Below the pieces are notes generated by a model, which had not been told where the DNA came from, made no database searches, and was given only the letters and a program-made list of their open reading frames with translations. From an uncultured Planctomycetota bacterium (GTDB lineage: Bacteria > Planctomycetota > JAJSAM01 > JAKLKS01), in contig CAYJMF010000001.1 in the NCBI GenBank assembly GCA_964370855.1, positions 5,905 through 69,904 of the forward strand: 64,000 bases of DNA, written 5' to 3'. Both the position numbers and the translations under genes were made by a program. This document shows positions 2,882 through 58,182 of the stretch, in pieces. The stretch's first letter is position 1, and each line of letters starts with the position of its first letter.

Positions 2882-2957
2882 GCGGGCGTAGCTCAGTGGT
2901 AGAGCATCGGCTTCCCAAGCCGAATGTCGAGGGTTCGATCCCCTTCGCCCGCTCCAA
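2882..2957 (+). tRNA. tRNA-Gly (anticodon CCC)
   Basis: GCGGGCG acceptor stem pairing with CGCCCGC (7/7). D-arm GCTC-AGTGGTA-GAGC. Anticodon arm TCGGC-TTCCCAA-GCCGA gives anticodon CCC. T-arm GAGGG-TTCGATC-CCCTT, discriminator T, encoded CCA. Folded by eye, not by software. Confidence 0.8.
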
Positions 2958-3057
2958 ATCCCCCCGAGGCTAACAGCCTCATAAGCATGGGGTTACGACG
3001 CTTTCCCTTCCTCCGAACGGTCGGTTTGGCACAACCCGTTTGTGCCCCGAAATGCCC

Positions 3058-3100
3058 CACTTTGCCGTTTCACGGCAAAGTGGACGGCAAAGTGGCGGCG
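3058..3100. repeat. perfect 11-bp inverted repeat (CCACTTTGCCG-tttca-CGGCAAAGTGG) followed by a direct repeat of CGGCAAAGTGG
   Basis: Seen directly. Lies between the tRNA 3' end and the stop of the minus-strand integrase. Candidate integrase arm-type site, att-region element or terminator. Confidence 0.4.
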
Positions 3101-3148
3101 GACCCCGGGATAGGGGGTGCGGCGGTGCTGGAAGGCCCTCGGCGAGGG

Positions 3149-4394
3149 TCAGCTCGCCGGGGCGGTCTCCACGGTCCCGGCCCCGGCCCGCCGGCCCCGC
3201 CGGCGGCGCGGAACGCCCGCCGCGGGAAGCAGGGAGGGGAGACCCTCGACGGCGCCCTTCACGTCGAAGAGGGCGAGGTCGGTGTAGGCCTTCATCGTCA
3301 GCTCCATGGAGGAGTGGCGGGCGAGGGCCTGCACGACGCGGGGATGGAGGCCGAGCGCCGCGAGCGAGGTGATGAAGGTCCCGCGGAGGGCGTGGAAGTC
3401 CACGGAGCGCCCCCCCTCGTCCACCCTCGCGATGCCCGCCGCCTCGAGGTCGCTGTGGAAGGTGCGGATCTGCGGGAAGCGGGCCGACGGGAAAACGGGA
3501 TCCTGCGGCTCTCCCTTCACCGACTTCCAGCGGTACTCCTTGAGCCACCCCGCGAGTTCCTTCCGGAGAGGGACGGACTGGTCCCTCTTCGACTTGGCCA
3601 CCGCCGCCGGAATCAAGACGGTCCCCTTCTCCAGGTCGAGATCCTTCCAGGAGAGGGCCAGCATCTCCCCCTTGCGGAGCCCCGTCCCCGCGGCGAAGGC
3701 GTAGATGAGCGCGCGGGTCTCGCCGAGGAGAAGCAGCCGCGCCTCCTCGGGAGGGGTGACGCCCCTGTGCTTCCTCTCCGCCCGGGCCTGCTCCAGCGGG
3801 CGGCGGCGAGCGGCATCGAGGAGCCGGCGTAGCTCCCCGTCGGTGAGGGCGCGCCGCACGAGGCGGCGATCGGTCTCCTCGTTGAGGGAGCGGATGTTGA
3901 TGAAGGGGTCGTAGGCGAGACGGCGGTTCCGGACGAGCCATCGGCTGAACTGGAGGAGGGCAGCGCGCATGCGGTTCACGGTCCGCGCACTCAGGCCCCG
4001 GTCGGAGCGGCCCTTGAGCCACGCGGAGGCGCGGGGGCCGTCGAGCTCCTGGAGGCCGGTGAGCCCGTTCTCCTCGACGAAGAGCTGGAGGGTCCGCTCG
4101 CGATCCTCCAGGTGGACGGGGGAGAGGCGGCGGGAGGCCAGTTCGGTGAGGAAGTCCTGGACATGGTCGCCGAGGTGGCGTTCGAGCTGGTCGTCGAAGG
4201 GAGTGACGAGGCCGGCGGCCCGGTGCTCTTCCTTCTTCGAGAGGGCGAGGGCCTTGGAGTAGGCGGCCTGCCGGTCCCGGGTTTCGAGGGAACGGCGGAT
4301 CCGCTTCCCGTCCACGGTGAGGTCCACCCAGTAGACCCGGGCCTCCCGGAGCTTCCCCTTCCCCGTGCGGAATCGCGGCTTGTACACGCGCATG
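3149..4394 (-). CDS. int: tyrosine integrase (phage integrase family), transcribed toward the tRNA
   Basis: Start MRVYKPRFRTGKGKLREARVYWVDLTVDGKRIRRSL is the AP2-like N-terminal domain typical of P4/CP4-57-type integrases. The catalytic region has GTGLRKGEMLALSWKDL (Arg), HALRGTF (H-x-x-R) and MKAYTDL (Tyr). The track ORF extends to 4717 as an upstream extension; ATG at 4394 chosen. Confidence 0.85.
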
Positions 4395-4715
4395 GCGGCC
4401 TCCCGACCCGGGGCGCGCCCTGCCGGCGCCCCCGCTCCGAGGAGCCTAACGTGGAGGGGGCCCATCGACTGCTTCTTGGTTGCCGGGGCGGTCCGGGAGT
4501 CCTCCACCGGGGCGGGGCAGGTGCGGGGCCCCCGGGGTAGAGTCCCGGGGTCACCACCGGGAGGTCCCTTGGCTGGTCCCAGATCCGTCGAACCGGGCTT
4601 CGGGCGCCGGATGCCGCGTCTCCCGGCGGTGGAGACGCTCGCCCGGATCCCCCCGCTGGCCATCCTGGTGTTCCGGGCCACGGCGCCGGTGGCGGTGCCC
4701 CGGAAGGCGACCACC

Positions 4716-5375
4716 ATGATGCCGGAGAAGGAGTGGGAGGCGAATCGGAGGATCGAGGCGGCACGGCCGGGGGCCCACGCGGCGTCGATTCGGGCTCTGG
4801 CGCGTTGGTTCCGGCACCGGGAGATCCCCGTCTACCAGGTGACGGCCCGGGCGGCCATGGTCGAGGGGGTGCTCCGGGGGCCCTGGAGGGATACCGACCC
4901 GGGGCTCGTGGGGCGACTGCTCGAGTACCCGGCGAAGCCGCGGGCGTGGGTCGAACTGCTCCCCTACCTCGAACTGTTGCGGCTCCTTCGGGTCGAAGGA
5001 CATCCGAAGGCAGTACTGGCCGCGGCCCGCGAGGCGGTCGTCGGCGCCGAGAAGTCAGGGGATCCCTTGGGGATGCTGCACGGCGTGCGGGAGGTTGCGG
5101 CGATGCTGCAGGAAGATATCGCGATCCTGCACTGGGCGTCGGTCGATGAAGCCCGCGCCGCGGCGGCTCCTTCCGCGAAGGGTGGCACCGACGGGGGGGA
5201 CCCCAAGGACCCTCTGCGAACGATTCCAGAAGCGGCGAAGAGGCTGACGCTGGGGGTCCGAACGGTATGGAGGGCCATCAGCGTCGGACAGTACCGGGTC
5301 GTCCGCCTCTCGAAGAGGGTGGTCCGCATGAAGGAGTCGGAGATCCAGAGGATTCTCCGCAATAGAGAACCGTAG
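4716..5375 (+). CDS. DNA-binding protein with C-terminal HTH_17 (excisionase/MerR-like) domain
   Basis: C-terminus IPEAAKRLTLGVRTVWRAISVGQYRVVRLSKRVVRMKESEIQRIL is an HTH_17-type helix-turn-helix. Divergent from the integrase. Start uncertain (ATG 4716 or 4611; track ORF from 4365). Confidence 0.5.
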   Translation: MMPEKEWEANRRIEAARPGAHAASIRALARWFRHREIPVYQVTARAAMVEGVLRGPWRDTDPGLVGRLLEYPAKPRAWVELLPYLELLRLLRVEGHPKAVLAAAREAVVGAEKSGDPLGMLHGVREVAAMLQEDIAILHWASVDEARAAAAPSAKGGTDGGDPKDPLRTIPEAAKRLTLGVRTVWRAISVGQYRVVRLSKRVVRMKESEIQRILRNREP

Positions 5376-6054: not shown

Positions 6055-6354
6055 CTATTCACACACCAGCGTGACAAACAGCACTGCGAACGAGAACCCC
6101 GCCACCGTCGCCACAACCACCCGAAGCGGCCGCGCAACAATAGAGAGGCGGGCTAGCACGATGCAGGCCACCATACACACGAGAGTAGCGGTCCACACAA
6201 TGCCGGCCACCATGGGCACACCCATGCGATATTCGGTGCTCTGGTTCATGAACGCCGCAAACCACGTTAGGACGCTTGCCCCTGCCGCAACAACAGCCAT
6301 CACCACCGCTCCAAGATTTGCCGCCAGCACCAGTACTCTCTTACCTCGCGGCAT
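6055..6354 (-). CDS. small membrane protein (about 3 TM helices); candidate immunity protein
   Basis: 99 aa, strongly hydrophobic (LVLAANLGAVVMAVVAAGASVLTWFAAF ... VAGIVWTATLVCMVACIVLARL ... VVVATVAGFSFAVLFVTLV). Its start overlaps the stop of the upstream lipase-domain giant protein by 14 nt. A gene immediately downstream of a toxin domain is the classic immunity position. Confidence 0.6.
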   Translation of the reverse strand: MPRGKRVLVLAANLGAVVMAVVAAGASVLTWFAAFMNQSTEYRMGVPMVAGIVWTATLVCMVACIVLARLSIVARPLRVVVATVAGFSFAVLFVTLVCE

Positions 6355-9300
6355 TGCGGAATGCCTCGCCCAGATCCGTTCCTACGCCACCGTCCGTGCC
6401 AACCCATCCAGAGTCTTCGTGCTTTGCATCATAGGTCTTTCCACCGCCCAAATCCCGCGTACTCGGAGCCAGGATCACACTATCAGCTCTAAACACAAGC
6501 TGCCCCAACTTGCTGTACTTTGACATGTATCCGACAAATGCATTCTGAATATTTCCCGGCAAACCGTAGGGCCTCGAATCAATGTTACTCGAGAAGGCCG
6601 GGGGGAACGACACATGAGTATGACCGCGCATTTGCGCCATGTCAGAGTGGTCCATCAAGCCGCTATCCACCGGATCAATAAGCCCGATAAATCGCACCTT
6701 GAGGCCGGCTCCCAAGATCTTGTTGCCCTTGCACCTACAGCCGGCCTTGCTAATGAACCCCGCAATATACATAGCCATGATTGCTCCGCGCGACCACCCC
6801 ATGATATCGATTTTTATTCTATCCTTATCACACCCCGCCTCCAAGTAGGCGCATACCTTCGAGCAGTACCATGCCATAGCCTTGTGCCACACGGCCATGA
6901 ATTCATTCGTATCCTTCAGCAGCCCCTTCCCCAGGGTGTCTGGAACGGTTGCGCTAACTTCAAAGGTATCGTAAAATGTCTCGCCGGTTGCTCCCTTGCC
7001 CTCGGCCGTCTTCTTGTAGGAGTCGCGCTGTCCCTGAATTGTGGTGTTCGTATATGGAGCATTCCCACGATTCCTGCCCCCCTCAAAGAAGAAGCCGAGC
7101 CACAGGTCCTTCTTGCAGGGGTCCTTTACCCCCTCCTTAGAGTCTCTGGTGGCACTTCGAACACCCTCAGTCGTCGCTTGGTCGGGAGGCTGCTTCGGCT
7201 TCTCCGGGACCTTCGGCTCCTCGGAGACAGGCGCTTCCTCCACCTTCTTCTGCGGTGGAACAGGCTTATCGTCCTGCGCCGGTACGGGAGGGCCCTGCTG
7301 CGCGACAGCCGTAACGGAATCTGCTGCACCAGGGAGCCCGATACCAGCAACGGAATCTCCCGTGAGTTTTCTCTGACCATCCATTAGAGGTGTGTCACCG
7401 CCGGATGGAGGAGGTCCCATGGATCCGGGTTGGCCGATATCAGGCGGCGATTCCCCCGCCCCCCCCTTTCCCTTCTCGGCCGGATCACTCGGCTCCCATT
7501 GGCAGGTGGCATTGTTGCACACAGTAGTTGGGGGACAGGGTGGGTCCATATCCTTGCACTTTGGTGGAGGTCCACAATTCGGCCACGTCCCGAGCGGTAC
7601 CACAGCGTCGTCCTGGGGGGCCTTCTTCTTTCTCTCTTCCTCCTTTCGCTTCTTCCACTCCTCCTCGGTCTCGTCGGCTCTCTTCTTCTTGTCTTCTCCC
7701 TCTTGTTCCTCCTCGTCCGCCTTTCTGTCATAGTCGTCCGCGGCCTTATCGGCCCTTGCTGCCTTTTCTTGGTAGAATGCCACAGCAGCCCAGCGACCCT
7801 CCTTCGCCGCTTGGTCCGCCTTCTTCCTGTAGTAGTCGCCCTGCTTCCTTGCCTCGCCAGCCCTTTTCCGGTTCTTCTCAGCCTCAGCGCGGTGTGCCAT
7901 TGCCTCGCGGAACATTGGATCCCGCTTTGCCCGTTCCTCGTCCGCCTTCTTCTGAAGCCTATCAAGTTCCTTCTTGTTGGCAAGTGCCTTCAACTCCAGT
8001 TCCTTCTTTTTCGCTGTATTGGCCTGTTCCTTTGCCTTATTCGACTTCTCCGTCTCCTCCTTGGCCTTCTTCGAATAGTAATCCTGCGCTGCCTTCGTAC
8101 TGGCTTTCTCAGCTTTCGCCGCGAACTCCTTAGCGCGAGCCTCATGCTTGTCCGCGGCGCGGTTGAATTTTTGAGCAGTATCACCGTGCTTCACTCCCTC
8201 CCTGAATAGGGGATCCTCCGCGGCCCTCTCTAAATCTGCGCGTCGCTGGCGCTTGGCTGCCGCCAAGGCCTCGGCAGCCTGTGTGGCACCTTCCGCCCCT
8301 CCTGCGCCTCCCTCCTTCTCAGTGATTTCCTTATATTCCTTCTCATAGTCATCAATCCTCTTCTGGGCACGTTCCGCAGCCAGAGTATCTCCACGCTTTT
8401 CAGCGTCCGCCTTCTCTTGCTTCGCGCGTTCGACGGCCAGCCTAGCCTGTCTCTCTCTGTCGGATTCAGCCAGGAGGTCCGCCGCCTCCTGCTGTAGTCG
8501 ATCAGCTCGCTCCTTTGCTCGTCTGTAGGCTTCCGCATCTCCGCGCTTCGCGGCTCTCTCCGCATCACGGGCCGCACGATCCGCCACGATAGCAGCTTCT
8601 TTGGCCCGGTCTGACGCAGCCCGCGCCCGGGCAACGACGGCGGGGTCGGCATCGTTCTCAGCATCGCGGAGCCGACTTTCCCGCTCGGCAGCGGCACTCC
8701 GAAGGCCCTGTGCTTGGTAGCGAACCTCACGAGCCTTGCGCAGCCCCTCAGGATCTCTGTACTGTTCGTCGTGTTCTCGCTCGCGCTCCCTCTGCTGCGC
8801 CCTTCGTTGAGCCGCCTGCTCTATGAGCCGCAGGATGTCTGAGGAAGGGGCTGTCGACTGCTGCGATGCCTCGAACCCTGACTTCAAGGCGTCGAGGGTC
8901 CAATAATCCAAGTCTGCCTTTGCCTGTGCGTACTCTTCCTTGGCCCTCTCCAGCTTCGTGGCCAGCTCCACTTCCTTCTTCAATGCACCCTTGAACACCG
9001 CGCCGTAGAAGGCCACGCTCTGTTCAATGCGAGCCAACCACGCAGTGTCTTCTGATTGCTCGTCCTCTCGTTTGACCTCACCCAGGATCACTCTCTTGCG
9101 AATTGAGTCTTCTTCTTCCTGAATTGCGCGGTTGTATTGCTCAGTCAAATCCTTGACCACTTCCTCAGCCTTGACCATCCGCTCGAACGCTTCATCCGCA
9201 TTGTTCTCGGCTTCCCCAGCACGCTGTACTGCGCCGACTCCTCCACCACCAGGCCCTCTTGAAGCGACCCCGGCGATTCCTGCAAGGAGATTGGCTCCAT

Positions 9301-11002
9301 GGCTGGATAGACTCGCTCCGATGCCCGGGGAGAACGGGCTAGGCGTCAAGACCCCACCTGAGACCTGAAGTTGTTTCGGAAGCAGAGAGAGCGAGTTCCC
9401 AAGCGGTTCGATGTTCAATTCACCTCTGCCAGCTGCCAACCACGATGGCCGGCTTGGCATTCCAGGCTCCGAGCCCATCAGGCCCATTTTCGTTCCCGCC
9501 GGTTCGCCACCGAACGACACTTGGATGACTTCCCCTCCTGTGACGCGCTGCAGGACTCCCCCTCCTTCATCGGGCCTAGCATAAATCAAATCGTTGACTT
9601 GGCGGACTCCGTCGACATCCTCATCACCAACGACGCCGAAGTCATGCACGCCAGCGTCCTCTTGCCAGTCCACACTCCACGGCTCGCTGTGAGGTGAATG
9701 GAATTCGGTTAACCACTTTGCGCCCCTGTGTCCATCATCCAGGCTTGGTCCGGGTGTTGCGAGGACACCTCCGCCTGGACCAAGGTCAGAGCCTCCGAGG
9801 TCAAAGTCTCCTGAAGTCGGAGGAGCCAGAACCGGAGGAAACCAGGGTCTCTCGAACCTGCTCGGGTCCACTGCGGCTATTACCGAGTCCTGTGGAGAAA
9901 GATAGGGTTCTGCTCTGAACTCCCGGAGTGGGCTGGAGTGAACCGGTGTAATCGTCGAGAGGATTGGTACTGAGGGAGGCTGCGTACTCGAATCGGCTAC
10001 CCCAGCTCCCGTGGTTCCTCCCGGCGGCCTATGGCCCTCTTCCTCTCTCCTTCGGGGCGGAGGCTCATCCGGAAGCGAAGGCAGCGGTCCACCGGACATC
10101 TGCCCTGCAGGAGACGCAAGGGGCTGGCCGCCGGCCACTTCAGAATCTGGCTCCTCATCCGTACGACGCCCGGCGACTGTTACGCCTCCGGAACCAGTAC
10201 CCTTCATCCTCTCTGGTTCCTGGGCCTCCTTTGGCGCTGCCTTTGATGCCAGAGGCGCATGGGAATCACCGGGGAGTTCCACTTCCTTCCCAACCACGGA
10301 GTGTCCCCCAGCCACTCTCAGCCCTGCCACCGACTCCTGCGGTCGCCCTCCGCCCATTGATTGGCCGGAGATACCTTCACCTGCAGGGTCCGCTCCTCCG
10401 GGTCCAGGTGCCATTCGAAAGCCCTGCTCACCGTAGCCCCTCGTAAGTTGCCCAGAGAACATTGAACCTGGGAAAGCACAGGCACCCGTAGGATGGCCCG
10501 AGCATGTACCAGGAGAATTCGGAACTGTGAAGGTGAGCGCCCACAGGGGCGCCACCTCCGGAGGAGGCGACGCGCCCTCGGCAACCTGTCCTTTAGGAGG
10601 AGTGCCCAGGTCAGGAGTGACACGGTCCATCCCTGCCGGCTCTTGGGGGGGGGTGAAAGGCGCATGCGTAGGCAGGCAGTCGCACTTCGCCACACACTTC
10701 TGTCCGCCCCCTTTCCCCACGACATCCTGCTTCGGTACGTCGAATTGCGCGTCCTTGATAGGGAGCGGGGCGCCCTTGGGCGATAAGGCCCCGGCTCCAT
10801 CGCCACCCCCGGCTTGGGAATCTGCCGGAGCCTCGCTCTGGTTCCCCTTGGCGCTTGGTGGGCTAGCCTGCTGCGGTTTCTGGTCCTTCCTGGTGTCCGG
10901 AGGCGTGACTACAGGCTCAGGGCTCCCCTCGCGGGGGGGGGATTCGCATCCCTCGCACCCGCAGTCACCCGAACTTCCTCCGGCACCGGTATTGCAGGCC
11001 AT
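6341..11002 (-). CDS. giant (1553 aa) protein: Gly/Pro/Ser-rich N-terminus, ~600-aa Ala/Lys/Glu/Arg coiled-coil stalk, Cys-rich linker, C-terminal DUF2235 (Tle1-like alpha/beta-hydrolase, predicted lipase/phospholipase) domain
   Basis: AGAGGAG SD upstream of the ATG at 11002. C-terminal region has LWLGFFFEGGRNRGN, the nucleophile elbow IDIMGWSRGAIMAMYIAGFI (GxSRGA) and VRFIGLIDPVDS, which match the DUF2235 triad of signature motifs (FDGTxN / GFSRGA / FLGVWDTV). The central region is a heptad-like Ala/Lys/Glu/Arg repeat (AKEEYAQAKADLDY..., DRAKEAAIVADRAARDAERAAKRGDAEAYRRAKERADRLQ...). The lipase-domain DNA (about 6341-7400) is visibly lower GC (~52-55%) than the flanks. Confidence 0.8.
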   Translation of the reverse strand: MACNTGAGGSSGDCGCEGCESPPREGSPEPVVTPPDTRKDQKPQQASPPSAKGNQSEAPADSQAGGGDGAGALSPKGAPLPIKDAQFDVPKQDVVGKGGGQKCVAKCDCLPTHAPFTPPQEPAGMDRVTPDLGTPPKGQVAEGASPPPEVAPLWALTFTVPNSPGTCSGHPTGACAFPGSMFSGQLTRGYGEQGFRMAPGPGGADPAGEGISGQSMGGGRPQESVAGLRVAGGHSVVGKEVELPGDSHAPLASKAAPKEAQEPERMKGTGSGGVTVAGRRTDEEPDSEVAGGQPLASPAGQMSGGPLPSLPDEPPPRRREEEGHRPPGGTTGAGVADSSTQPPSVPILSTITPVHSSPLREFRAEPYLSPQDSVIAAVDPSRFERPWFPPVLAPPTSGDFDLGGSDLGPGGGVLATPGPSLDDGHRGAKWLTEFHSPHSEPWSVDWQEDAGVHDFGVVGDEDVDGVRQVNDLIYARPDEGGGVLQRVTGGEVIQVSFGGEPAGTKMGLMGSEPGMPSRPSWLAAGRGELNIEPLGNSLSLLPKQLQVSGGVLTPSPFSPGIGASLSSHGANLLAGIAGVASRGPGGGGVGAVQRAGEAENNADEAFERMVKAEEVVKDLTEQYNRAIQEEEDSIRKRVILGEVKREDEQSEDTAWLARIEQSVAFYGAVFKGALKKEVELATKLERAKEEYAQAKADLDYWTLDALKSGFEASQQSTAPSSDILRLIEQAAQRRAQQREREREHDEQYRDPEGLRKAREVRYQAQGLRSAAAERESRLRDAENDADPAVVARARAASDRAKEAAIVADRAARDAERAAKRGDAEAYRRAKERADRLQQEAADLLAESDRERQARLAVERAKQEKADAEKRGDTLAAERAQKRIDDYEKEYKEITEKEGGAGGAEGATQAAEALAAAKRQRRADLERAAEDPLFREGVKHGDTAQKFNRAADKHEARAKEFAAKAEKASTKAAQDYYSKKAKEETEKSNKAKEQANTAKKKELELKALANKKELDRLQKKADEERAKRDPMFREAMAHRAEAEKNRKRAGEARKQGDYYRKKADQAAKEGRWAAVAFYQEKAARADKAADDYDRKADEEEQEGEDKKKRADETEEEWKKRKEEERKKKAPQDDAVVPLGTWPNCGPPPKCKDMDPPCPPTTVCNNATCQWEPSDPAEKGKGGAGESPPDIGQPGSMGPPPSGGDTPLMDGQRKLTGDSVAGIGLPGAADSVTAVAQQGPPVPAQDDKPVPPQKKVEEAPVSEEPKVPEKPKQPPDQATTEGVRSATRDSKEGVKDPCKKDLWLGFFFEGGRNRGNAPYTNTTIQGQRDSYKKTAEGKGATGETFYDTFEVSATVPDTLGKGLLKDTNEFMAVWHKAMAWYCSKVCAYLEAGCDKDRIKIDIMGWSRGAIMAMYIAGFISKAGCRCKGNKILGAGLKVRFIGLIDPVDSGLMDHSDMAQMRGHTHVSFPPAFSSNIDSRPYGLPGNIQNAFVGYMSKYSKLGQLVFRADSVILAPSTRDLGGGKTYDAKHEDSGWVGTDGGVGTDLGEAFRNAAR

Positions 11003-14291: not shown

Positions 14292-15107
14292 TCACTCGAT
14301 TGGGAAGGGGATGTTTCGCCTAGTGTAGGCTCGATTCAGGGAATAGGCATTCGCGAGGCCAACGGATGCGGCGATCTGACTCTCGCCACGTTGGAGGCGG
14401 ACCCCACTCTGCACCCTTGCGTGAAAGAACTCCCAAGCGACTTCTTCGGGGGGTAGACCTACGGTCGATATGCAGAGACGCTTGAGGACATGGCGATTCA
14501 CTCCGAGTGCTCTGGCCCAGGACTTCACCTGGAAGTCCGACCCCACTTTTAGGGTGAGGAGCGCCTTTCGCATCTTCTCCCTCTTGGAAAGGAGACTGAA
14601 GGGCTTCTCGTCGGAGAGATCCGCGCCTCCGTTCCGGCAGGCCGCCGCAATCCTCTGCGAGATCTCTCCTTCGGGAACGAATTCGATGGGGCATCTGCGC
14701 GCCCAGTCGGCGACCACATGGGCGGGGCAGTCGGGTGCGTCGGCGAAGGAGGTGCAACCGGGCCGTTTCAGGAGTGAAGCGACTACCGAGGGTCTGAGCC
14801 GCATGAGCGCCTCGACCCCGAGGACCACCACATGAGGGCCGGACTGGAACTCCAGCACATGAAGGAGCCTTCGGGCTTCTACCCTGATTGCCGAAAGGTG
14901 GTGACCGTCGAGATTCAAGTCGACGACGCCTGCCAGGATGAGCGGCACGGAAACGGCCGCAACCGATGCCATAGCTTCCAACAATGCAGCCATGGATTCG
15001 CTGGCTGGAGCGACATCGAGGGCATTGGCCTTGCCCCTTCGGGGCTGGAGGCTGGCCGCTGCGGGAGAACCACCTCTTGTGGGGCGATCGCCGCCTTTCA
15101 GTGCCAT
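14292..15107 (-). CDS. AraC/XylS-family transcriptional regulator
   Basis: C-terminal double HTH (VKSWARALGVNRHVLKRL ... IAASVGLANAYSLNRAYTRR) typical of the AraC family. Start ambiguous (15107 or 14993; track ORF to 15218). Confidence 0.6.
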   Translation of the reverse strand: MALKGGDRPTRGGSPAAASLQPRRGKANALDVAPASESMAALLEAMASVAAVSVPLILAGVVDLNLDGHHLSAIRVEARRLLHVLEFQSGPHVVVLGVEALMRLRPSVVASLLKRPGCTSFADAPDCPAHVVADWARRCPIEFVPEGEISQRIAAACRNGGADLSDEKPFSLLSKREKMRKALLTLKVGSDFQVKSWARALGVNRHVLKRLCISTVGLPPEEVAWEFFHARVQSGVRLQRGESQIAASVGLANAYSLNRAYTRRNIPFPIE

Positions 15108-15597
15108 CCCATCCTCGGACTTCATGCACTTGTTCCCTGTCTGCGAGGAACTCCCCGGACCGGCATCCTCGAACTCTCCATCAGTTCCTCTCTCCCCGGC
15201 GCCGGTGGAACCCGGCACTTTCGATTCGTCCTTTTGTCCGCAGTTGCCTCCGCGGCGGCGCGCCCAATGCGCCCCACTGGAGATAGAACGCCCGAGACCC
15301 GCAAATCTGTCGCGGGATCCCGAGAATCTTCCGCAAACCTCCTATCCTCCGGGCCGGCCCCGCCCACCCCCGGGGCCCTACACCCCCCCAGAGGCATTGA
15401 ACCCGCCCCGGAATCGAAAAGGGCCGCTGACCACAGACCGTCCCCCTGCCGGGATGCACTGCCCCCCCGACGAGGGGGACCGCTGCCTGTGTCAGCGGCC
15501 CTTCGAGAGGGACCTTAACGAGAGGCCGGTCCGGAAGTCAAGCGCCTGTTTCGATGCCGGGAGTGCCCCCAGCGTGCGCTGGTCGCCCCGGGCCGGA

Positions 15598-26188: not shown

Positions 26189-26237
26189 GGCGTCCTCCAC
26201 GACCGTGTCCAGCCCATTCACTGGTAGCCTCTCCCTG

Positions 26238-33605: not shown

Positions 33606-33671
33606 CGGCACCCCACCGTTCAGCGCCCGTCTGCTCCGATTCTCTCCTTCAGCAGCCGGAGGAACTCCCTT

Positions 33672-49000: not shown

Positions 49001-51749
49001 TGGCGCCCCTGCTGACTCCCTCCAGGTAGGCGACTCCGGTCGGGAGAGCCCCCGGATCCTCCGAGGGGGCGCACTCCCTCCACAACATGTCCGTGGTTTG
49101 CCGCAGGGCCCTCATCCTCTCCAGGACCGTGGCTCTCGCCTCCCCAAGCTCCTTCTTCGCTTCCTTGGAACACAGGAGGGAGGGGAGCGTGTCTCCGGAC
49201 AGCCGCTCCTCCACGAGGAGAGAAGGCACCTGCCCGAGGAGCCCGGTCAGGACCTCCCAGTCTCCGACCGAAGCATCAAAGACGCCGGCCGTGGCCATTG
49301 ACAAGGCATGCATCTGCTCCTTCAGCTCGGCGCGCTTCTCCTTGACCTGCATGACCCGGTTCAGGACGGAGAGAATGTCCTCCCGCACCAGCTTTCCAGA
49401 CGAAGTCCTGTTGCCGGCCACGGTCCGCCAGTCGCGCCGGTACTGCATCGAGAACAGGCGGCGCCAGAAGGACTGGTAGTCCACCTTGAAGCGGAGGAGC
49501 ATGTCCTCGTCTACGGCATCCACGAGCCGTAGCGAGTAGTCGCTGGCCAGGTCCATCTCCGCGGCGGTGAGTTCCCTCCGGAGGACCCCGGCCCTCTCGG
49601 CTAGGACCTCGATCCTGCGGACACCCTCCACGGTGCTCCACACGGCAGGAAGCACGGGCAGTCTCCCCAGCGCGAGGCTGGTGTCGAGCGCCCATGGGAC
49701 ATCATCCAGTGAGTCCGGAGTCGGCCGCGCCATCAGGAGGGAGTGGAGGGCATTCGCCCCGGCGAGGAGCCCCCGAAACGAGGACTCGACGGCGGCGATG
49801 TGTCGCGCAACCAGTTCATTCCGTTCCAGGAGAAGGCGGTCCCAGTCGGCCCCCAGAAGTACTCGGCACGCCCTGCCCTTGGACTCGTCGATGTTGAGCA
49901 GGGTGAGGATGTCGGGAATGGACTCCAGTGCGGGGGAGTGGGTGAACACGACGGCAATCTCCCCGTCAAGTCTCCGAACCTCCTCCACCTTCGGCAGGGC
50001 CCTTCCGTACAGGTCCCGGAACTTCCTCCGGCGCGATGGAGAGCACCAGGCGGAGGGGACGCCGGGACATGTGGCCATGGCATCGAGAATCGGGACCAGC
50101 CGCGAAGCCTCTCCGGCGCACCGGGGCCGTTCCGTCCCCAGCCACCGCCCTGTCGCCTCCGACTCCCGGTCGAGTTCCTCGATGGCCCCGCCGAGGGCAT
50201 TCGCAACGTCACGGATGTCCGTGGTCAGGCGAAGCGTGCTCGACCGGGCCTTAAGGGCCCTCCACCGGCTGGTGCCGTGTTCCGAGTACTCGCGCTGACG
50301 ACGCTGGATCCTCGCGAGGGCGCCGTCAATCTGCGAGAGACGCTCTCCTGTGAGGCCCCCGACACCGGTCACAGAGAAGTCCACCACGGGATAGTCATGG
50401 ACCAGGCTGAACCTGCCCTGAACCTGGAACACGGTGAGCCCCAGTGGCTCCCGAACCCGATGAAGTTCCCTGGTCAGGGTGTTGAGCTGGGTCCGTATCT
50501 TCTCCAGCTTCTCGAAGGGCACCCCCTTTGCCCGGGTCCGGGATTCATCGAGCGCATCCCGGAGTTGTCCGTAAACGGACGCCTTGCGTCCTCTCTCGCT
50601 GTGAAGGTCCAGGCAGAAGACTCCCAGGTCGCACTCCTCTAGTCGCCGCTTCACCACATCCAGGGCGGCGGTCTTCTCGCTTACGAAGAGGACCCTCTTC
50701 CCGTCGGCGAGCAACCCCGCGATGATGTTGGCGATGGTCTGGGACTTTCCCGTTCCCGGAGGCCCGTGAATCACCATGTGGGAGCCGGCCCTTGCACGCT
50801 CGATGGAGATCAACTGGCTGAAGTCGGCCTCCATCACCGTGTGTTCGTTCTTCACGCCGATCAGGTCATCCAGCCTCCCCCCCGTGAGCTCCGCGACGGG
50901 GGGGAACGGGGAGGCGTGCTTCTCACTCTCGTCCCTGAGGCTTCCGATGTCTCCGGCGAGGCACCGAACGAGGGGATGGTCCACCCCCTGCTTGCGCATC
51001 GCGTCCAGGTCCTCCCAGATGGCCATCTTCGAGAAGGCGAAAGTGGCGAGGTAGACATCCTCCCGGACCACCCAGTCCGGCTTCCCTCGGATGGCCTCCC
51101 GGACCCGATCGAGGTACTGGGATGGAGACTCCTGCCCAAGGTCGGGGATCTCCACTCCCAGCGCCCCGACCTTCTGGCGCAGGGTGGAGTTGTGGACGGG
51201 ATCGTCCCCCTCCTTCAGGAGGAGGAAGGGATCCCGGGGAGACTCCCGCAGAAGGTCGCAGGGGCAGAGGAACAACGGCGCGATGGCCCGGGTCCCCTCG
51301 TCGTCGATCCACTGGAGGGTCCCGACCGCCAGGAACAGGACGTTGAGGCCCTGCTCCTCCATCCACTCGCGCTCCCTCTTCCGGAGAGCGGAGAGCCGCT
51401 TCTGGAGCTCACGGGGGTCGCCATCGGTGTCGAGATCCCCTTCGATGACGAAGTAGTCAGGCTCGGACTCGTCATCAGCACTGCTCTCGGGTGCGAAGAG
51501 GTTCCTCTCGTCCCGCCTCCCCCGGGGCTGAACATGGTCGAAGGACAGCCCCTTCTCGGAGTCCTCCAGGTTCTGGTAGAGGTCGTCCACGTCCTCGGTA
51601 AGGATGCGGACGGAGGAGCGGCTAGCCTTGAAGTAGAGGAGGCCGTTGCGGCGATCGAGCTGGAGGACGCGCGCCTGCCACTCCGCGATCCGCGTCTTCA
51701 GGTCGGACCTGGAGGATGCCCTGTCGCCGTTGGGTCCCATCGCCTTCAC
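46041..51749 (-). CDS. 1902-aa DUF4011 / Upf1-DNA2-like SF1 helicase with C-terminal REase-like (DUF559) and DUF3320-like domains
   Basis: Walker A HGPPGTGKSQT and Walker B VIFDEASQ. SF1 C-terminal motifs (VVGDEHQLPP, YRSRHEDLI, LNVAVSRAR). A Vsr/DUF559-like endonuclease fold (FCQVGCNGYFIDLAVEAEDGSGFDLGIECDGATYHSSPSARDRDWQRQSVLEGLGWTIHRIWS) and a long C-terminal tail. Confidence 0.85.
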   Translation of the reverse strand: MKAMGPNGDRASSRSDLKTRIAEWQARVLQLDRRNGLLYFKASRSSVRILTEDVDDLYQNLEDSEKGLSFDHVQPRGRRDERNLFAPESSADDESEPDYFVIEGDLDTDGDPRELQKRLSALRKREREWMEEQGLNVLFLAVGTLQWIDDEGTRAIAPLFLCPCDLLRESPRDPFLLLKEGDDPVHNSTLRQKVGALGVEIPDLGQESPSQYLDRVREAIRGKPDWVVREDVYLATFAFSKMAIWEDLDAMRKQGVDHPLVRCLAGDIGSLRDESEKHASPFPPVAELTGGRLDDLIGVKNEHTVMEADFSQLISIERARAGSHMVIHGPPGTGKSQTIANIIAGLLADGKRVLFVSEKTAALDVVKRRLEECDLGVFCLDLHSERGRKASVYGQLRDALDESRTRAKGVPFEKLEKIRTQLNTLTRELHRVREPLGLTVFQVQGRFSLVHDYPVVDFSVTGVGGLTGERLSQIDGALARIQRRQREYSEHGTSRWRALKARSSTLRLTTDIRDVANALGGAIEELDRESEATGRWLGTERPRCAGEASRLVPILDAMATCPGVPSAWCSPSRRRKFRDLYGRALPKVEEVRRLDGEIAVVFTHSPALESIPDILTLLNIDESKGRACRVLLGADWDRLLLERNELVARHIAAVESSFRGLLAGANALHSLLMARPTPDSLDDVPWALDTSLALGRLPVLPAVWSTVEGVRRIEVLAERAGVLRRELTAAEMDLASDYSLRLVDAVDEDMLLRFKVDYQSFWRRLFSMQYRRDWRTVAGNRTSSGKLVREDILSVLNRVMQVKEKRAELKEQMHALSMATAGVFDASVGDWEVLTGLLGQVPSLLVEERLSGDTLPSLLCSKEAKKELGEARATVLERMRALRQTTDMLWRECAPSEDPGALPTGVAYLEGVSRGAIDPATHVSDILEALTAVRAVAEILAGARSRLSGCLSDAVPSLESLRGALRAVQNRDECRRTLDDIWRTLFAEVPEEFLPETGDWASLGPAAQWMGGHGEALPDITSDVLKCHLEHPQQGEDYRKPAARLKGLVAKLAEAHAAAGLIFSLQETPCPDAETFRFETGKAWSEEILEAPESAHAWLDYLQAVEEVHAFLEDGVVDGVWQATDNADEVPGVVLRRVYEAWLDHAYATTTELRTTAPDLDARRRSFKDLDRAFVLANRERVRERCFGKYPDQGLPTRGLGELGQLQTELTKKRRQRPVRWLMEEIPNVIQSLKPCFLMSPLAVSQFLPRCAVTETGPAFDTVIFDEASQVFPWDAIPALSRADQAVVVGDEHQLPPTHFFRSEGADEDDAPLEEADVTPESLTVGRESILDAMVGLKGLAVEEHSLMVHYRSRHEDLIRYSNRYFYDGRLLVFPTASPGRPDLGLRDVYLPDARYDAGGTRTNPGEAEAVVDKVFELMRDRPPKESIGVVALSRAQADLIERLVNERRLVERALDDRFAEDRHERFFVKNLENVQGDERDHIILDIGYGPTVGSDAVPNRFGPLSHDGGHRRLNVAVSRARMSLTVVHSLRPQDITSEMQGPRLLRRYLEYVASPAGALEAGEVRPTTDAPESEFEEAVYRALVSRGHKVFCQVGCNGYFIDLAVEAEDGSGFDLGIECDGATYHSSPSARDRDWQRQSVLEGLGWTIHRIWSRSWILDPAREVARVEEALERARQVRSATVPSFEPKSGDDASEKYRETVQVAASDSAFDPYQRILFKNIPRHDISSASDNEIASKIAEVVKVEQPVHEQVVWKRLRALYRCGRIGRVIEDRLRQIQKTAVRNGLFVYLDDSIGGDHGEREFFCLPGAKSARPRGTDSSGGRTRIHEISFVELAAGLEAVVARSYGITPGDAIVATSREFGFARTGDEIRGRLSMTLDRLQRSGRMVEKDGKLFPGNLSP

Positions 51750-53543: not shown

Positions 53544-53945
53544 ATGCCCAAGCACAAGAAGTCGTTCCCCTGCGGCCATGTCGGGTTCGGGCAGTTCTGT
53601 CACCCCTGCCGGGACGCGGAACGGGCGGAGGCCAAGCGGACGGCGGCGGTCGAAGCCCGGCGGCAGGAGAAGGCGGCAAAGGCCGAGGTCCTTGACGCCT
53701 CCCCCGTCCCTCTCGACGGGCTCCCCGACGCCGTCCAGAGGAAGGCGCTCGAAGTAATGGCCGCCGTCGCCGCGGGCCGCCCGTGGCAGGAGTTCCGGGG
53801 GAAGAAAGTCGATTCCCGGCGCGGCGTCCGCGTCGTTGTCCCCCACGGCTGGTCCTACCGGCTCCTGTTCAAGTGGACCGGGAGCGGCGGCCTCGTGCCC
53901 GAGAAGGCGCTGTCGCACGAGGCGTACAACGGGTTGTTCTCATAG
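53544..53945 (+). CDS. hypothetical zinc-ribbon protein
   Basis: ATG 53544 with GGAGGAG SD. N-terminal CGHVGFGQFCHPC. C-terminal VRVVVPHGWSYRLLFKWTGSGGLVPEKALSHEAY. Confidence 0.5.
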   Translation: MPKHKKSFPCGHVGFGQFCHPCRDAERAEAKRTAAVEARRQEKAAKAEVLDASPVPLDGLPDAVQRKALEVMAAVAAGRPWQEFRGKKVDSRRGVRVVVPHGWSYRLLFKWTGSGGLVPEKALSHEAYNGLFS

Positions 53946-53955: not shown

Positions 53956-54750
53956 ATGGCAGGGCGCAAGTCAGCCGAGCCGGGGCCTCCTGTGATCAAG
54001 CAGTTCACCGCCGCAGAGATTGACCGCGCAATCCCTCGCCTCCGCAGGAGGATAGATGAGACCCGAAGACTCCTAGCGGATCGGGTTCAGCGCAACGACG
54101 CGAGAGTCGAGGAGGTTGTAGACCGGATCCGCGAGGACATCCTCGCCATCTTCGGTCCCGACTCCCCTCAGTACCGCGCCCACCGTTACCTGAGCATCTA
54201 TCAGGGAACCAGGTACATGGGCATGTCTGACTACGAGTCTCAGGCCAACTTCGAGGCCGGGATCCCACAGGCCGTAGGCACGCTTGAGGGGTTGATAAGG
54301 ACTCTGGAGGAACGGCGGGCTGAACTTGGCGAGGATCCGGGCGCTCCTGCTCGCGCTGCTCTAGAGGGCGCGGACCTTCACCCGAGCATCGCGGCGGCCA
54401 GCATGGACCTATTCCGGAGTCGCAACTACCGGAACGCCGTCCTCGACGCCTGCATCGCGTTGGTCAACCTCGTGAAGGAGCGGTCCGGGAGGAACGACCT
54501 CGACGGGGCTCCGCTCATGCGGACGGTCTTCTCCCGACGGGGACCGATACTCGCTTTCAACGACCTCGCGGACCAGACCGACGAGGACGAACAGGAAGGG
54601 ATGATGCACCTGTTCGAGGGAGTCTGCCTTGCCCTCCGAAACCCACGGGGGCACGCGCTGGAGCAGGACACCCCCCAGGAAGCGATGGAGGCTCTCACCA
54701 TCCTGAGCATCCTCGCCAAGCGGCTGGAGGGGACGAAGAAACGGCCGTAG
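53956..54750 (+). CDS. HEPN-domain (Rx4H) Abi-like protein
   Basis: ATG with AGGAGG SD. C-terminal LFEGVCLALRNPRGHALEQD contains the HEPN Rx4-6H motif. Confidence 0.7.
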   Translation: MAGRKSAEPGPPVIKQFTAAEIDRAIPRLRRRIDETRRLLADRVQRNDARVEEVVDRIREDILAIFGPDSPQYRAHRYLSIYQGTRYMGMSDYESQANFEAGIPQAVGTLEGLIRTLEERRAELGEDPGAPARAALEGADLHPSIAAASMDLFRSRNYRNAVLDACIALVNLVKERSGRNDLDGAPLMRTVFSRRGPILAFNDLADQTDEDEQEGMMHLFEGVCLALRNPRGHALEQDTPQEAMEALTILSILAKRLEGTKKRP

Positions 54751-55112: not shown

Positions 55113-55551
55113 TAGCCCTCGCCACCTTCACGCCGCCCGTTCCGATATCGGTAGCCTCCGGTCTCGGAAGGGCCACTCGATTCCGATGTCTGCGGCTGGG
55201 GAAGTCCCGAGAGCGGGCAGACAGACGCGATTCCTGCCGAACCGCGCCCGCGGGAACTGGTTAGAATGCGGTGTCGCCTTCCAGGTCGCCGTGTAGAGGG
55301 GCCGGGCGACGGAGTCGCCATTCTTGCAGAGTTTCTCTAGCAGGGCGGCCTGACCCGTCCCCGCACCCGAGGTGCGGCGGCGGGACCGGCCGAGTCGGGA
55401 GGTAGCCCCCCTCTCGGGCCGCCCAGCATACGACCACCAACGCCGGGTGATAGTCCGGCGTGGTTCTAAGCAGGGGCCTTGTCGCAACCTGAGCAGACGA
55501 ACTGGGGGAGGGGCCACGCGCCTCTCCCCCATCTCCTTCCGACGGCAACTG

Positions 55552-56208
55552 CTACTCGGACCTTGTCACCGCAGCGTAAAGGACTTGGGCAAGCGGCGTC
55601 ACTCCGACCTCTAGGTGATCGAAGTCCCGAGTCGGCGGCGGCGGCAAGACGCGGGTATTTCTCCCGACCCGGGTGTGCCTCGACAGGGTCTTCAGCAACC
55701 CGTTCGCCTCTAGGAGCAGGACGGAGTGTGCTTCCGCCGTCCTGCGATCCGCGGCGACTCCGATTGCGTGGCTCGGCCCCTGAGCGCAGTACTCGACGGC
55801 GGTCTTGAACACCCGGGCGTCGAGCGGGGAGAAGTCCCGAAGCAACCGGATGAACATTGGCTGCTGCGCTGCGTCGCGCTGGACGCCGGACACCAAGAGG
55901 TGGGCCCACATATCCTGAAGCGTCGCGTCGTCCATGTAGCCCGCCGCCTCGATGACCGGGAGCAGGAAGGACGGGGGAACGATCCGCGCCGCGACCTTCA
56001 TCTCCTCCATGATCTCCTTGGCGCGGGCCGCCATCCGCACGCGGTTCTGCCACTTCCACATCTCCACCTGATCCGCGATGGCGCTCCCGGCGACCTTCAG
56101 GGGTTCCCCTAGTAGGCTCTCCACGAAGCCGACGGCCGACTTCACCACTGGCTCGGGGACACCGGCCAGCGACTTTAGGATGGAGACGGCGGTGGACGGC
56201 TCGGGCAT
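55552..56208 (-). CDS. Abi_alpha (DUF4393) family abortive-infection protein
   Basis: LLPVIEAAGYMDDATLQDMWAHLLVSGV...MFIRLLRDFSPLDARVF matches Abi_alpha signature blocks. Confidence 0.75.
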   Translation of the reverse strand: MPEPSTAVSILKSLAGVPEPVVKSAVGFVESLLGEPLKVAGSAIADQVEMWKWQNRVRMAARAKEIMEEMKVAARIVPPSFLLPVIEAAGYMDDATLQDMWAHLLVSGVQRDAAQQPMFIRLLRDFSPLDARVFKTAVEYCAQGPSHAIGVAADRRTAEAHSVLLLEANGLLKTLSRHTRVGRNTRVLPPPPTRDFDHLEVGVTPLAQVLYAAVTRSE

Positions 56209-56227
56209 AGTCCCTCCTTGGATGCGA

Positions 56228-57142
56228 TCAGGGGGTCATTCCCCAACACGGGCCGAGCGTCACAAGGGTCGGATCGGACACGACGGCCGGGGCCGCGAAG
56301 TCCGGGGATTCCACGATTGCGGCCATTTCCCTCGCCAGGTGCAGCAAGATCGGAAGGGCAAAGTCCCACGCGCTCCTGAAGCCCCACGCCCTGAAGTCCA
56401 CCACCTGCATGTGGCGGAAGTCGAAGGCCCGGTTGTCGAACCGCACGCTCTCGTTCTTCCCCTTCGGGCTGACGAAGGCCCCGTTGTTGTGGACCGTGTT
56501 CCTCACGAGGCGCATGAGATTGAACATCGGCTTGGCCCTCTTTCGTTTCGACCGAGCGACCACCCACGAGTAGATGCTCTCGAAGTTTGCCGCCCCGCCC
56601 TCGCATGCAGCCGGGTCCCCCTCTCGTACCATGGATCGAAGGCTCGTCTCCATCACCGAGAAGATGGCGTGGAATAGCCCGACCCCGACGAACCGCATCA
56701 CCTCGTCCGAGACGACGGCCCTGTCCTCCGCGGATGGCACACGGTCGAACTTCCCCTTCCACCATTCGGGCGAGTGCAAGTCGTTCGTCTGGAAGGCGGT
56801 CAGGACCAGGGCGGTCTGGGCAATGCCGTGTACCCGCCAGAAGAAGGCCAGTCGCGCATCGCGGTCCCTGTCCCATCCGGGATGTCGAGCCTCCAGGTCG
56901 CGCCCGGCAGCGGCGTAGGTGTCCCGAAGGAGTTGGATGCCCTGAGTGAGTTCTATCGTTGGCACGGCTTCTCCCTCCTCGGTCTCTCTGGCTTCACCCG
57001 ACATGGATACCATCACTTCGCGCGGAACTGGTCCCGAGCGGCGAGAGGTTGTCCCATCGCTGGGGCTAGGGTCGATCTGCAAATGAGAGCGGGCCGCACT
57101 CTTCCTCCCGAAGAGGGCCACCCAGTTGACGAACCTCAACAA
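56228..57142 (-). CDS. hypothetical protein (possible HEPN-like)
   Basis: Co-operonic with Abi_alpha. LMRLVRNTVHNNG is a weak Rx6H candidate. Start uncertain (57013 MVSMSGE is an alternative). Confidence 0.45.
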   Translation of the reverse strand: MLRFVNWVALFGRKSAARSHLQIDPSPSDGTTSRRSGPVPREVMVSMSGEARETEEGEAVPTIELTQGIQLLRDTYAAAGRDLEARHPGWDRDRDARLAFFWRVHGIAQTALVLTAFQTNDLHSPEWWKGKFDRVPSAEDRAVVSDEVMRFVGVGLFHAIFSVMETSLRSMVREGDPAACEGGAANFESIYSWVVARSKRKRAKPMFNLMRLVRNTVHNNGAFVSPKGKNESVRFDNRAFDFRHMQVVDFRAWGFRSAWDFALPILLHLAREMAAIVESPDFAAPAVVSDPTLVTLGPCWGMTP

Positions 57143-57887
57143 CGGTGATCTCCGGGGCGATCTTGCCCCGCTCGTTCGTGAGTTCCGCGCACACGCAGAG
57201 ATCGCCGTACATCCTGAGGATCACTCTCCGAGGAGCGGACCCTACGACGAAAAACTTCCTCTGCCGAACCGCTGCGCCATCTCCGGCCGCATTGGCAATG
57301 AGGATCGACCACAGGAAGACAAGGGACCCGACGAACACTTCTGGTCCGAAGCGGCGCATGACCGGCGTGGCTGGTCCCTCAACCGTCTGCTCGAACTGGT
57401 CCTGTGCCTCGATCTTCGCTGCGAGTCCCGGGACCCTCCCGTACCGAATGACAGCCAGCAGGATGTGAAGTATCGCTGGTAGGAGAACGAAACCGAGCAT
57501 CCACAAGTGCTTCGACGGTTGTCCTCCGTAGGCGAAGAGGACTCCAATCCAGAGGAGGATCCCCACCCCTGTTCCGGATAGGGGTCCGCGGAAAGGCGCG
57601 GGGAGGTTCTGGAACGCCTTTCGGAATGAGATCCAACAGAGGAAAACGACCGAGGCCACCGCTACCACCGCCATGCAGGCGTCCAGTACATGAGAGCCAC
57701 CCAAGGATATCAGCCCCTTCGGGATCCGGAAGGCCGCGCAATACCCCTCTTCGTAGGAGAACGCTACGCCGAAGCTGATGAGTGGCAGCACCGCCGCAAT
57801 GAGAGTGTCCGTAACCCACGACCGCTTGGGAGGTGGAACTCCGGCCTGAACAGGCACTTCGTGTTCGGGCGTGCTGTCGCCAGTCAT
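57066..57887 (-). CDS. membrane protein with about 4 TM helices
   Basis: ATG 57887. Hydrophobic stretches LIAAVLPLISFGVAF, MAVVAVASVVFLCWI, GVGILLWIGVLFAY, LGFVLLPAILHILLAVI. Confidence 0.6.
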   Translation of the reverse strand: MTGDSTPEHEVPVQAGVPPPKRSWVTDTLIAAVLPLISFGVAFSYEEGYCAAFRIPKGLISLGGSHVLDACMAVVAVASVVFLCWISFRKAFQNLPAPFRGPLSGTGVGILLWIGVLFAYGGQPSKHLWMLGFVLLPAILHILLAVIRYGRVPGLAAKIEAQDQFEQTVEGPATPVMRRFGPEVFVGSLVFLWSILIANAAGDGAAVRQRKFFVVGSAPRRVILRMYGDLCVCAELTNERGKIAPEITVVEVRQLGGPLREEECGPLSFADRP

Positions 57888-58182
57888 CCGGGAATCGTAA
57901 CCGCCCGAACGCCCCGCTTCGCAGTCGGTTCCACGAGGGACATTGCCTATCAGAATGGGCCTTCTCGATGGCATTCGGAGGTACGGATGCCTGATGGAGA
58001 TGGGCAGGAGTACCGCGTTACCAACATCCATTGAACGCCGGAGGGGTTCTCCCCGCACTTCCAGAGCACCGGGACGCCTCGTCCCGCCCACGAAATCGAC
58101 GGTCACCAGACACGGCCCGCCACACCCGGGCTTTCGGACGAGCACCGGCGCGTCCTTCTCCGGTAGCCTCAAGCGGAACAAC

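Follow-up and report, generated by a model that had tools for sequence, protein, structure and literature searches.

A tRNA-Gly-anchored, compositionally mosaic defence locus in an uncultured Planctomycetota bacterium

Gene content of the tRNA-Gly locus

We analysed a stretch of 64,000 nucleotides (the window) from contig CAYJMF010000001.1 of an uncultured Planctomycetota bacterium, in which about 55 kb of anti-phage, toxin and mobile genes follow a tRNA-Gly(CCC) gene. A preliminary description made from the letters of the sequence had regarded positions 2882-58180 as essentially one ~55-kb defence island that starts at the tRNA and an integrase. ARAGORN, Rfam and Pfam agree on this starting point. 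The tRNA-Gly(CCC), the only tRNA found in the window by both ARAGORN and Rfam, is followed after 192 bp by the gene of the tyrosine integrase int1, which is convergent with the tRNA 3' end. The true length of int1 is 414 aa and not the 522 aa of the maximal open reading frame (ORF), the start lying downstream of the first ATG. The neighbouring gene encodes a 254-aa DNA-binding protein with a weak excisionase-like match, and its homologue at the related loci L007/L008 has HTH_17 on record and a tblastx match of 51%. The coordinates of all features are collected in Table 1.

Pfam and PADLOC recovered the inventory of the preliminary description (Shango, ietAS, DUF4041-T5orf172, NERD, DUF4011, HEPN, Abi_alpha and IS1595) at the same places, and its statement that nearly all genes here are mobile, defence- or conflict-related or of unknown function holds. 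By homology, four recognised anti-phage systems are predicted. The PD-Lambda-1-type protein combines DUF4041 and T5orf172 in a single chain. The sngA-sngB-sngC operon of Shango, also predicted by homology to act against phages, is complete and co-oriented with overlapping start and stop codons, and its proteins carry TerB_N/TerB/TerB_C, BrxC_BrxD and DEAD plus Helicase_C domains in Pfam. The ietA and ietS genes are spaced by 18 bp. The 1902-aa protein of the PDC-S37/Hhe type shows DUF4011, AAA_11/AAA_12 and a C-terminal PD-(D/E)xK-type MTES_1575/DUF559 nuclease, its Hhe match covering the C-terminal part only. Together with HEPN, Abi_alpha and NERD, these systems lie within 19.7-56.2 kb, the kind of clustering for which the defence-island concept was reportedly introduced by Makarova et al. 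in 2011. The HEPN gene is preceded at 10 bp by a gene with a ParE-like toxin domain and DUF7682, which the preliminary description had missed; this pair and Abi_alpha are, by their homologies, candidate abortive-infection or toxin-type genes.

Table 1. Features of the window, with the matches on which each assignment is based
Feature	Position	Strand	Evidence and remarks
int2, tyrosine integrase, 498 aa	1315-2811	+	Phage_integrase
tRNA-Gly(CCC)	2882-2956	+	ARAGORN; Rfam tRNA, 73 bits; proximal anchor of the island
int1, tyrosine integrase, 414 aa	3149-4393	-	Phage_integrase and SAM-like domains
254-aa DNA-binding protein, excisionase-like	4611-5375	+	HTH_17, weak (E=0.019); conserved partner of int1
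99-aa protein, candidate immunity protein	6055-6354	-	Translation; three hydrophobic segments; 14-nt overlap with the stop end of the 1553-aa ORF
1553-aa near-orphan, C-terminal lipase-like toxin domain	6341-11002	-	GWSRG motif
Seven small ORFs, 97-136 aa	11015-14150	-	Four are paralogues of ~33% identity (alignment)
308-aa protein, possible AraC-type regulator	14292-15218	-	HTH_18, sub-threshold; head of the toxin operon
894-aa protein, TPR-like solenoid and C-terminal flavodoxin/DUF2325-like domain	15598-18282	-	GC 0.74, host-like
PD-Lambda-1-type protein, DUF4041 and T5orf172/GIY-YIG-like	19704-22217	-	Pfam; PADLOC E=3.5e-153
IS1595-family insertion sequence, intact	22949-24076	-	DDE_Tnp_IS1595 and Zn ribbon; 40-nt terminal inverted repeats, 90% complementary
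473-aa BACON-domain protein	24800-26221	-	BACON_2, E=3.9e-12
73-nt repeat, copy 1	26231-26303	-	Leader upstream of the BACON gene
SngC	26421-28670	-	PADLOC 9.1e-281
SngB	28642-30012	-	PADLOC 3.8e-179
SngA	30009-33692	-	PADLOC 3.8e-84
SngA, N-terminal ~520 aa	32133-33692	-	PADLOC mREase_IV, E=1.4e-22
73-nt repeat, copy 2	33665-33737	-	Start of sngA
1528-aa S8 subtilase with DUF11/CARDB	34002-38588	+	Pfam; PADLOC 'subtilase' 3e-31, weak IetS
IetA, AAA ATPase	38639-39793	+	PADLOC 3.2e-70; Pfam AAA
IetS, S8 protease	39812-42331	+	PADLOC 1.8e-34; Pfam Peptidase_S8
NERD nuclease-like gene	42509-43144	+	Pfam
Tight four-gene cluster: NERD, family 2 glycosyltransferase (GT2), radical-SAM/SPASM enzyme, AAA_33 kinase	42509-45641	+	Pfam
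1902-aa DUF4011/SF1 helicase/MTES_1575 nuclease/DUF3320	46041-51749	-	PADLOC PDC-S37, 1172 bits; Hhe 2.5e-148
ParE-like toxin domain and zinc-binding DUF7682	53544-53945	+	Pfam, gene calls
HEPN (Hypoth_Ymh)	53956-54750	+	Pfam; PADLOC Aga_HEPN, PD-Lambda-3_B
Four-gene operon: 273-aa, 245-aa, Abi_alpha and 134-aa proteins	55128-57887	-	Gene calls
Abi_alpha	55552-56208	-	Pfam E=4.2e-15; PADLOC PDC-S47
Glycoside hydrolase family 5 (GH5), secreted	58183-59397	+	Cellulase domain; boundary zone; GC 0.684
401-aa helix-turn-helix (HTH) protein	59581-60786	-	Resolvase/IS21-type HTH only; boundary zone; GC 0.690

The int1 family, a related locus and the composition of the stretch

Twenty-two related loci were scanned in GTDB Planctomycetota genomes. 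In 13 of the 22, the gene of an int1 homologue (30-53% identity) has a tRNA gene ~100-250 bp from its 3' end, and the two genes converge in all but one of these 13. The tRNAs are those for Val, Met, Gly-CCC, Asp, Ala, Arg, Ser and Cys. At locus L023, a ~50-nt copy of the tRNA, running from its 3' end to the anticodon loop, is found 7.7 kb away and gives the attachment site (att) of the family with a clean right attachment site (attR). The int1 family is demonstrably tRNA-targeting. The named homologues of int1 and of the flank proteins come overwhelmingly from metagenome-assembled genomes (MAGs) of Planctomycetota. In one such MAG, int1-family integrases stand in tandem at a tRNA-Gly(CCC) (L019, 8573-11152). 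In addition, at L016, L017 and L020 the integrase family adjoins primase/helicase genes, the combinations being DUF3987 with RepB primase, Prim-Pol with D5_N, and Prim-Pol with AAA_25, which points to small replicative integrative elements of one family within this phylum.

The same tRNA-Gly(CCC)/integrase/HTH_17 arrangement was found in a distant relative, at locus L007 on a 1.86-Mb contig, where an orthologous integrase 65% identical to int1 adjoins a tRNA-Gly(CCC) near-identical to that of the window. Directly beyond its HTH_17 gene lies a 346-nt remnant with 82% nucleotide identity to the N-terminus of the DUF4011 gene, corresponding to residues ~93-211 of the window protein and oriented towards the integrase module as it is in the window. 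The integrase/HTH_17 module and the DUF4011 gene are ~41 kb apart in the window and abut in L007, which has no equivalent of window positions ~5.4-51.1 kb (~45 kb of content) and no synteny with the window on its far side. On the simplest reading of these sequences, both lineages would have inherited an island with an integrase module and DUF4011, after which L007 would have lost, or the window gained, the intervening DNA. In either case, this linkage would tie both ends of the stretch to one variable locus.

The other assemblies recovered are copies of the window itself. We read 24 contigs carrying the flank proteins (of 39-48 indexed), and all belong to the same context and the same clone. 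Three of them, compared base by base, showed 0 mismatches to the window over the 14.4 kb and 13.1 kb compared (~27 kb together). The matching contigs are from ENA metagenomes, NODE_139 of ERZ13692987 being an example, and ERZ13693126 is another sample with this clone. Because these assemblies are clonal, the conservation of their content is uninformative. The preliminary description had named gene content shared among relatives as the observation that would speak against an island; clonal copies share it trivially, whereas the one real relative, L007, does not.

The G+C content (GC) is host-like (~0.74) at the window ends and falls to 0.56-0.70 between ~4.5 and 58 kb, except at 15-18 kb. Atypical DNA starts within 2 kb downstream of the tRNA-Gly, and the int1 gene is itself host-like in composition. 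Counted per gene, GC is 0.59-0.70 inside the stretch against 0.74 outside. Measured against the host reference, the flanks have a tetranucleotide distance of 1.2-2.2, as compared with 2.6-5.4 at 4-14 kb and 17-58 kb; the interval of 15-18 kb, with a distance of ~2.0 and a GC of 0.74, is indistinguishable from the flanks. Among the modules, the toxin genes depart furthest from the host (0.56-0.65), the 894-aa gene stands at 0.74 and the rest at 0.61-0.70. The k-mer check that had been suggested for the island found atypical tetranucleotides over ~4-58 kb, and in addition a mosaic with a host-like interval at 15-18 kb. At least three compositional classes and an insertion sequence (IS) are more in keeping with accretion piece by piece than with a single transfer.

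For the right end, the placement is no narrower than 57.9-60.9 kb, because the GH5 gene and the HTH gene that follows it have an island-like GC of 0.68-0.69; the two may lie either inside or outside. The next gene has a GC of 0.740, and the tetranucleotide distance is back at the host level by 58-59 kb. The start of the GH5 gene at 58183, just before which the preliminary description had ended the island, was reproduced by Pfam and the gene calls. A 52%-identical candidate orthologue of the sigma/CarboxypepD_reg protein in the right flank was rejected as a landmark: it has an unrelated context and many paralogues, and no synteny-based boundary could be drawn from it.

The host-like interval is occupied by the gene of an 894-aa protein, which had been listed as unknown in the preliminary description with its host-like GC overlooked. 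The protein has no match in Pfam, PADLOC, NCBIfam or the PDB sequences. Only seven close homologues (57-61% identity) were found among 5.8 billion clusters, and a metagenome scan added 24 more distant family members. The neighbourhoods of two close homologues (L012 and L013) and six distant ones were inspected, Pfam being run on selected neighbours in the six, and defence genes lie beside the family member in six of these eight, namely both close and four distant ones. The close homologue in L012 is surrounded by HNH, ApeA-HEPN, PLD, an SNF2 helicase and an SLFN-type helicase, and that in L013 by a Wadjet-like operon (DUF2399 is on record, the other genes being assigned from their sizes), GmrSD and BREX (BrxL/PglZ/PglX). 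Among the distant members, the neighbours are BrxC in L098, an MmeI-type methylase and an AAA_11/12-MTES_1575 helicase-nuclease in L115, an SNF2 helicase in L112 and a DruE-like DEAD/MZB protein of 1804 aa in L103; in L101 they are only a GT2/methyltransferase/deacetylase protein and a UvrD-like helicase, and in L100 only a PDZ-domain protein. By BLAST grouping, L101, L103 and L108 each have a ~830-aa UvrD-like helicase immediately upstream of their family member, the Pfam match having been obtained for the L101 copy alone. Because the family sits among defence genes elsewhere, the 894-aa gene fits the theme of the island as a candidate defence component. Its C-terminus carries a conserved motif, GGNE...GWSSNWGR...CTGHGRD. 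We tentatively suggest that the protein might found a new anti-phage family, either as a single-gene system or as a sensor or accessory subunit, although we consider this less likely than not.

Origin of the locus

Based on the tRNA anchor, the integrase family, the composition and the linkage in L007, we propose that the DNA from the 3' end of the tRNA-Gly to 57.9-60.9 kb is probably an old integrase-associated genomic island of foreign origin, now immobile-looking and built in several steps. An element with a tRNA-targeting tyrosine integrase would have integrated at an att site reaching from the anticodon loop to the tRNA 3' end. The distal att site, and any replication genes, would later have been lost. 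The locus might then have become a landing pad on which cassettes of differing composition accumulated. The stepwise assembly, and the state of being no longer an intact mobile element, are suggested because an attR and a primase or helicase are lacking, GC is mosaic, and IS1595 and a 73-nt repeat are present.

Several observations weigh against this proposal. The attR was sought with exact and mismatch patterns, blastn-short (the tRNA and 200 nt), relaxed scoring and Rfam at E<=5. With <=3 mismatches allowed, the tRNA 3' end has no further copy; the best local matches to the tRNA are only 17-18 nt long (E>=0.39); neither the window nor the next 11 kb contains a partial tRNA by the Rfam model at E<=5; and a direct repeat of the tRNA 3' half is absent from -5.9 to +75 kb in the relaxed-scoring search. 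Because both the 3'-half repeat and a partial tRNA are lacking, the classic island signature is incomplete: of the marks of a tRNA island, the anchor, the integrase family and the composition are present and the att repeat is not. Unlike its family relatives, int1 has no primase or helicase beside it in the island. The composition, with at least three classes plus an IS, does not suit a simple single island, and the host flank itself contains GC patches of 0.62-0.67. None of the relatives recovered shows synteny with the right flank, so that the distal end is set by composition. An empty site was not found, all recovered assemblies with the flanks being clonal. Finally, the DUF4011 remnant in L007 could reflect the independent acquisition of a common cargo gene. 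The description of the stretch as one island is therefore plausible but not proven: one variable locus is plausible from L007, while the attR is lacking, the composition is mosaic and an end at 58180 is not borne out. The weak similarity to the tRNA 3' end that had been noted at 58022-58045 was rejected as a chance match, every attR search being negative.

At least two independent insertions or hotspots would account for the mosaic in another way, with a toxin module at 5-15.2 kb and a defence block at 18.3-58 kb split by a native gene at 15.6-18.3 kb, only the first of them belonging to the integrase at the tRNA-Gly. The flank-like interval of 15-18 kb (distance ~2.0, GC 0.74) is what this explanation predicts, and three or more GC classes, IS1595 and the 73-nt repeat around Shango are likewise signs of modular assembly. 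However, a family that is as rare as that of the 894-aa protein (seven close homologues) and lies among defence genes in six of eight contexts does not behave as housekeeping, and in L007 the integrase module is directly adjoined by DUF4011, a gene of the far block. We therefore consider separate insertions unlikely. Vertical inheritance of a lineage-specific region whose position next to a tRNA and a degenerate integrase is a coincidence, its low GC arising from gene-specific constraints, is in our view very unlikely. In its favour are the missing att repeat, the identical content of every recovered assembly, the high GC3 (0.82-0.92) of many internal genes and the patches of 0.62-0.67 GC in the host flank. 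But the identical assemblies are copies of one clone, with 0 mismatches in the 27 kb that were compared, and silent on conservation, the only true relative with an orthologous tRNA/integrase module, L007, is without ~45 kb of the content, and the accessory genome is the usual place for an intact IS, a tRNA-targeting integrase, dense defence systems and a near-orphan toxin gene.

The remaining alternative concerns the limits of the locus, in that 2882-58180 might be too narrow for a larger two-sided hotspot that takes in DNA on both sides. On the left, the second integrase int2, missed in the preliminary description, ends 70 bp before the 5' end of the tRNA; it is unrelated to int1, the 30% identity between them being confined to the catalytic domain. 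The gene of int2 is the last in a block of ~8.7 kb with about nine unknown genes (L094, 1-8715) that extends 5.9 kb to the left of the window and may be another integrative element. The block includes a 927-aa protein with a weak Toprim match, and this layout resembles the primase and integrase modules of the related elements. All metagenome contigs read for this clone break off at one common base, 5.9 kb left of the window, and one stops 14 bp from the tRNA 5' end; on the right, the GH5 and HTH genes have a GC of 0.68-0.69. Nevertheless, the left block is host-like in composition, with no att repeats detected and no relatives in viral contigs, int2 faces the tRNA 5' end unlike the tRNA-integrating relatives, and the tetranucleotide distance is host-like from ~58.5 kb. 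An 8.6-kb contig that looked like a circular or separate form of the left block was rejected as such, as its termini do not overlap and it runs out into a poly-G artefact. A two-sided locus thus appears possible but rather doubtful, and we prefer the stepwise island bounded by the tRNA-Gly 3' end.

Classical tRNA-integrating islands with a tyrosine integrase are exemplified by the P4-like islands. Similar to these and to L016, L017, L020 and L023, the integrase of the window is convergent with the tRNA 3' end and is accompanied by DNA of atypical composition. In contrast to such elements, the island of the window has neither an attR nor a primase or helicase beside the integrase, and it measures ~55 kb against 7.7 kb in L023, the one related element with both ends located. 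It therefore looks immobilised and secondarily expanded.

The core defence hotspots cDHS1 and cDHS2 of Pseudomonas aeruginosa are flanked by tRNA or tmRNA genes and contain Shango (PMC10250203). The locus described here is alike in its fixed site by a non-coding RNA gene, in its varied anti-phage systems including Shango, unknown genes and mobile remnants, and in its apparent assembly by several mobile elements. It differs in being known in one occupied state, in its uncultured host and in the inclusion of an inter-bacterial toxin module. It is a familiar kind of locus, its main systems already being named, with a few genes that are new. What it adds is the documentation of a tRNA-linked defence island and a tRNA-targeting integrase family in an apparently high-GC uncultured Planctomycetota, and an example of an island without any formal mobility signature (attR, replication genes) that is still recognisable through a remnant in a relative. 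In addition, it offers as candidates the ~900-aa TPR protein, a Shango variant with a nuclease-like TerB protein, and a near-orphan lipase-type toxin with an array of small paralogues.

Individual modules and neighbouring genes

The TerB protein, BrxC/D-like ATPase and DEAD-box helicase of the window are the domain set described for Shango (PMC10250203). SngA of the window is distinguished by its length of 1227 aa against a profile of 528 positions, the extra ~520 aa forming an N-terminus that matches mREase_IV. Within it, residues ~215-440 are 28-32% identical to plasmid genes annotated as 'restriction endonuclease' in Methylobacterium, Agrobacterium and Xanthomonas. The N-terminus thus resembles a type IV/Mrr-like restriction endonuclease and is a possible built-in effector of Shango. 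As a secondary reading, the nuclease-fused SngA may identify the missing effector of the system. The 7.4-kb operon is bracketed by the two 73-nt direct repeats, which are 85% identical and share a perfect 25-nt core, CACGATTGTCCTTCCCGTGAGCAAC on the minus strand, present in two copies where 0 are expected by chance. The repeat was absent from every other locus fetched, and it could be a shared regulatory element or a scar of cassette insertion. The adjacent BACON-domain protein has no PADLOC match.

The 1553-aa ORF of the toxin module has the lowest GC of the window genes (0.60). It has no Pfam, PADLOC or PDB match, and only 14 matches were found among 1.84 billion representative proteins, including a single distant full-length homologue for its body. 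The last ~170 aa contain a GWSRG nucleophile-elbow of the lipase type and match 12 proteins of varied length, among them the C-termini of two RHS-repeat proteins; the domain is also present in short proteins that weakly resemble Tle1-like proteins or thioesterases. The toxin operon of the preliminary description is thus borne out by a lipase-type C-terminus that recurs at the ends of RHS-repeat proteins. The AraC regulator named there corresponds at best to the 308-aa ORF at the head of the operon, whose HTH_18 match stays below the threshold (15.1 bits against a cut-off of 33.6; E=0.029), with nothing at 1e-3. The 99-aa protein is probably membrane-spanning, and its position makes it a candidate immunity protein. 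By homology, the module might encode a lipase of the polymorphic-toxin type that acts between bacteria, accompanied by a putative immunity gene. Similar to RHS-type polymorphic toxins, it has a large protein, a C-terminal module that recurs on RHS ends and a small overlapping gene after it. Unlike them, the window protein has no detected RHS, LXG or other trafficking or secretion domain, there being no Pfam match in its body, which has one distant full-length homologue, and its gene is preceded by the array of small paralogues. The paralogues share the pattern PRFT...W.RL.I.I...VT.WA.G, and the seven small ORFs have no Pfam match except a weak one to F5_F8_type_C.

The 1528-aa subtilase gene is co-oriented with ietA and precedes it by 50 bp, and it may form one unit of three genes with the IetAS pair, two of the products being proteases. 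The four-gene cluster that begins with NERD gave no match to a named defence system. Its GT2 is closest to the mycofactocin protein MftF, all NCBIfam matches being below the cut-off. The radical-SAM gene was considered as a viperin (pVip) and rejected, the match being limited to the radical-SAM core and a SPASM domain being present; by its domains the enzyme is more like a peptide or cofactor maturase. The cluster could be a small modification cassette, similar to those of ribosomally synthesized and post-translationally modified peptides (RiPP-like), or an undescribed system. In the Abi_alpha operon, the other three proteins have no Pfam match, and the 273-aa one is a probable membrane protein.

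Beyond the HTH gene, three consecutive large paralogues of 1092-1377 aa with an extracytoplasmic function (ECF) sigma-70 domain and many CarboxypepD_reg repeats occupy 60931-64000 and the DNA that follows (L001, 1-14134), one of the genes extending beyond the window end. This architecture is unusual and is common in MAGs of Planctomycetota and Acidobacteriota.

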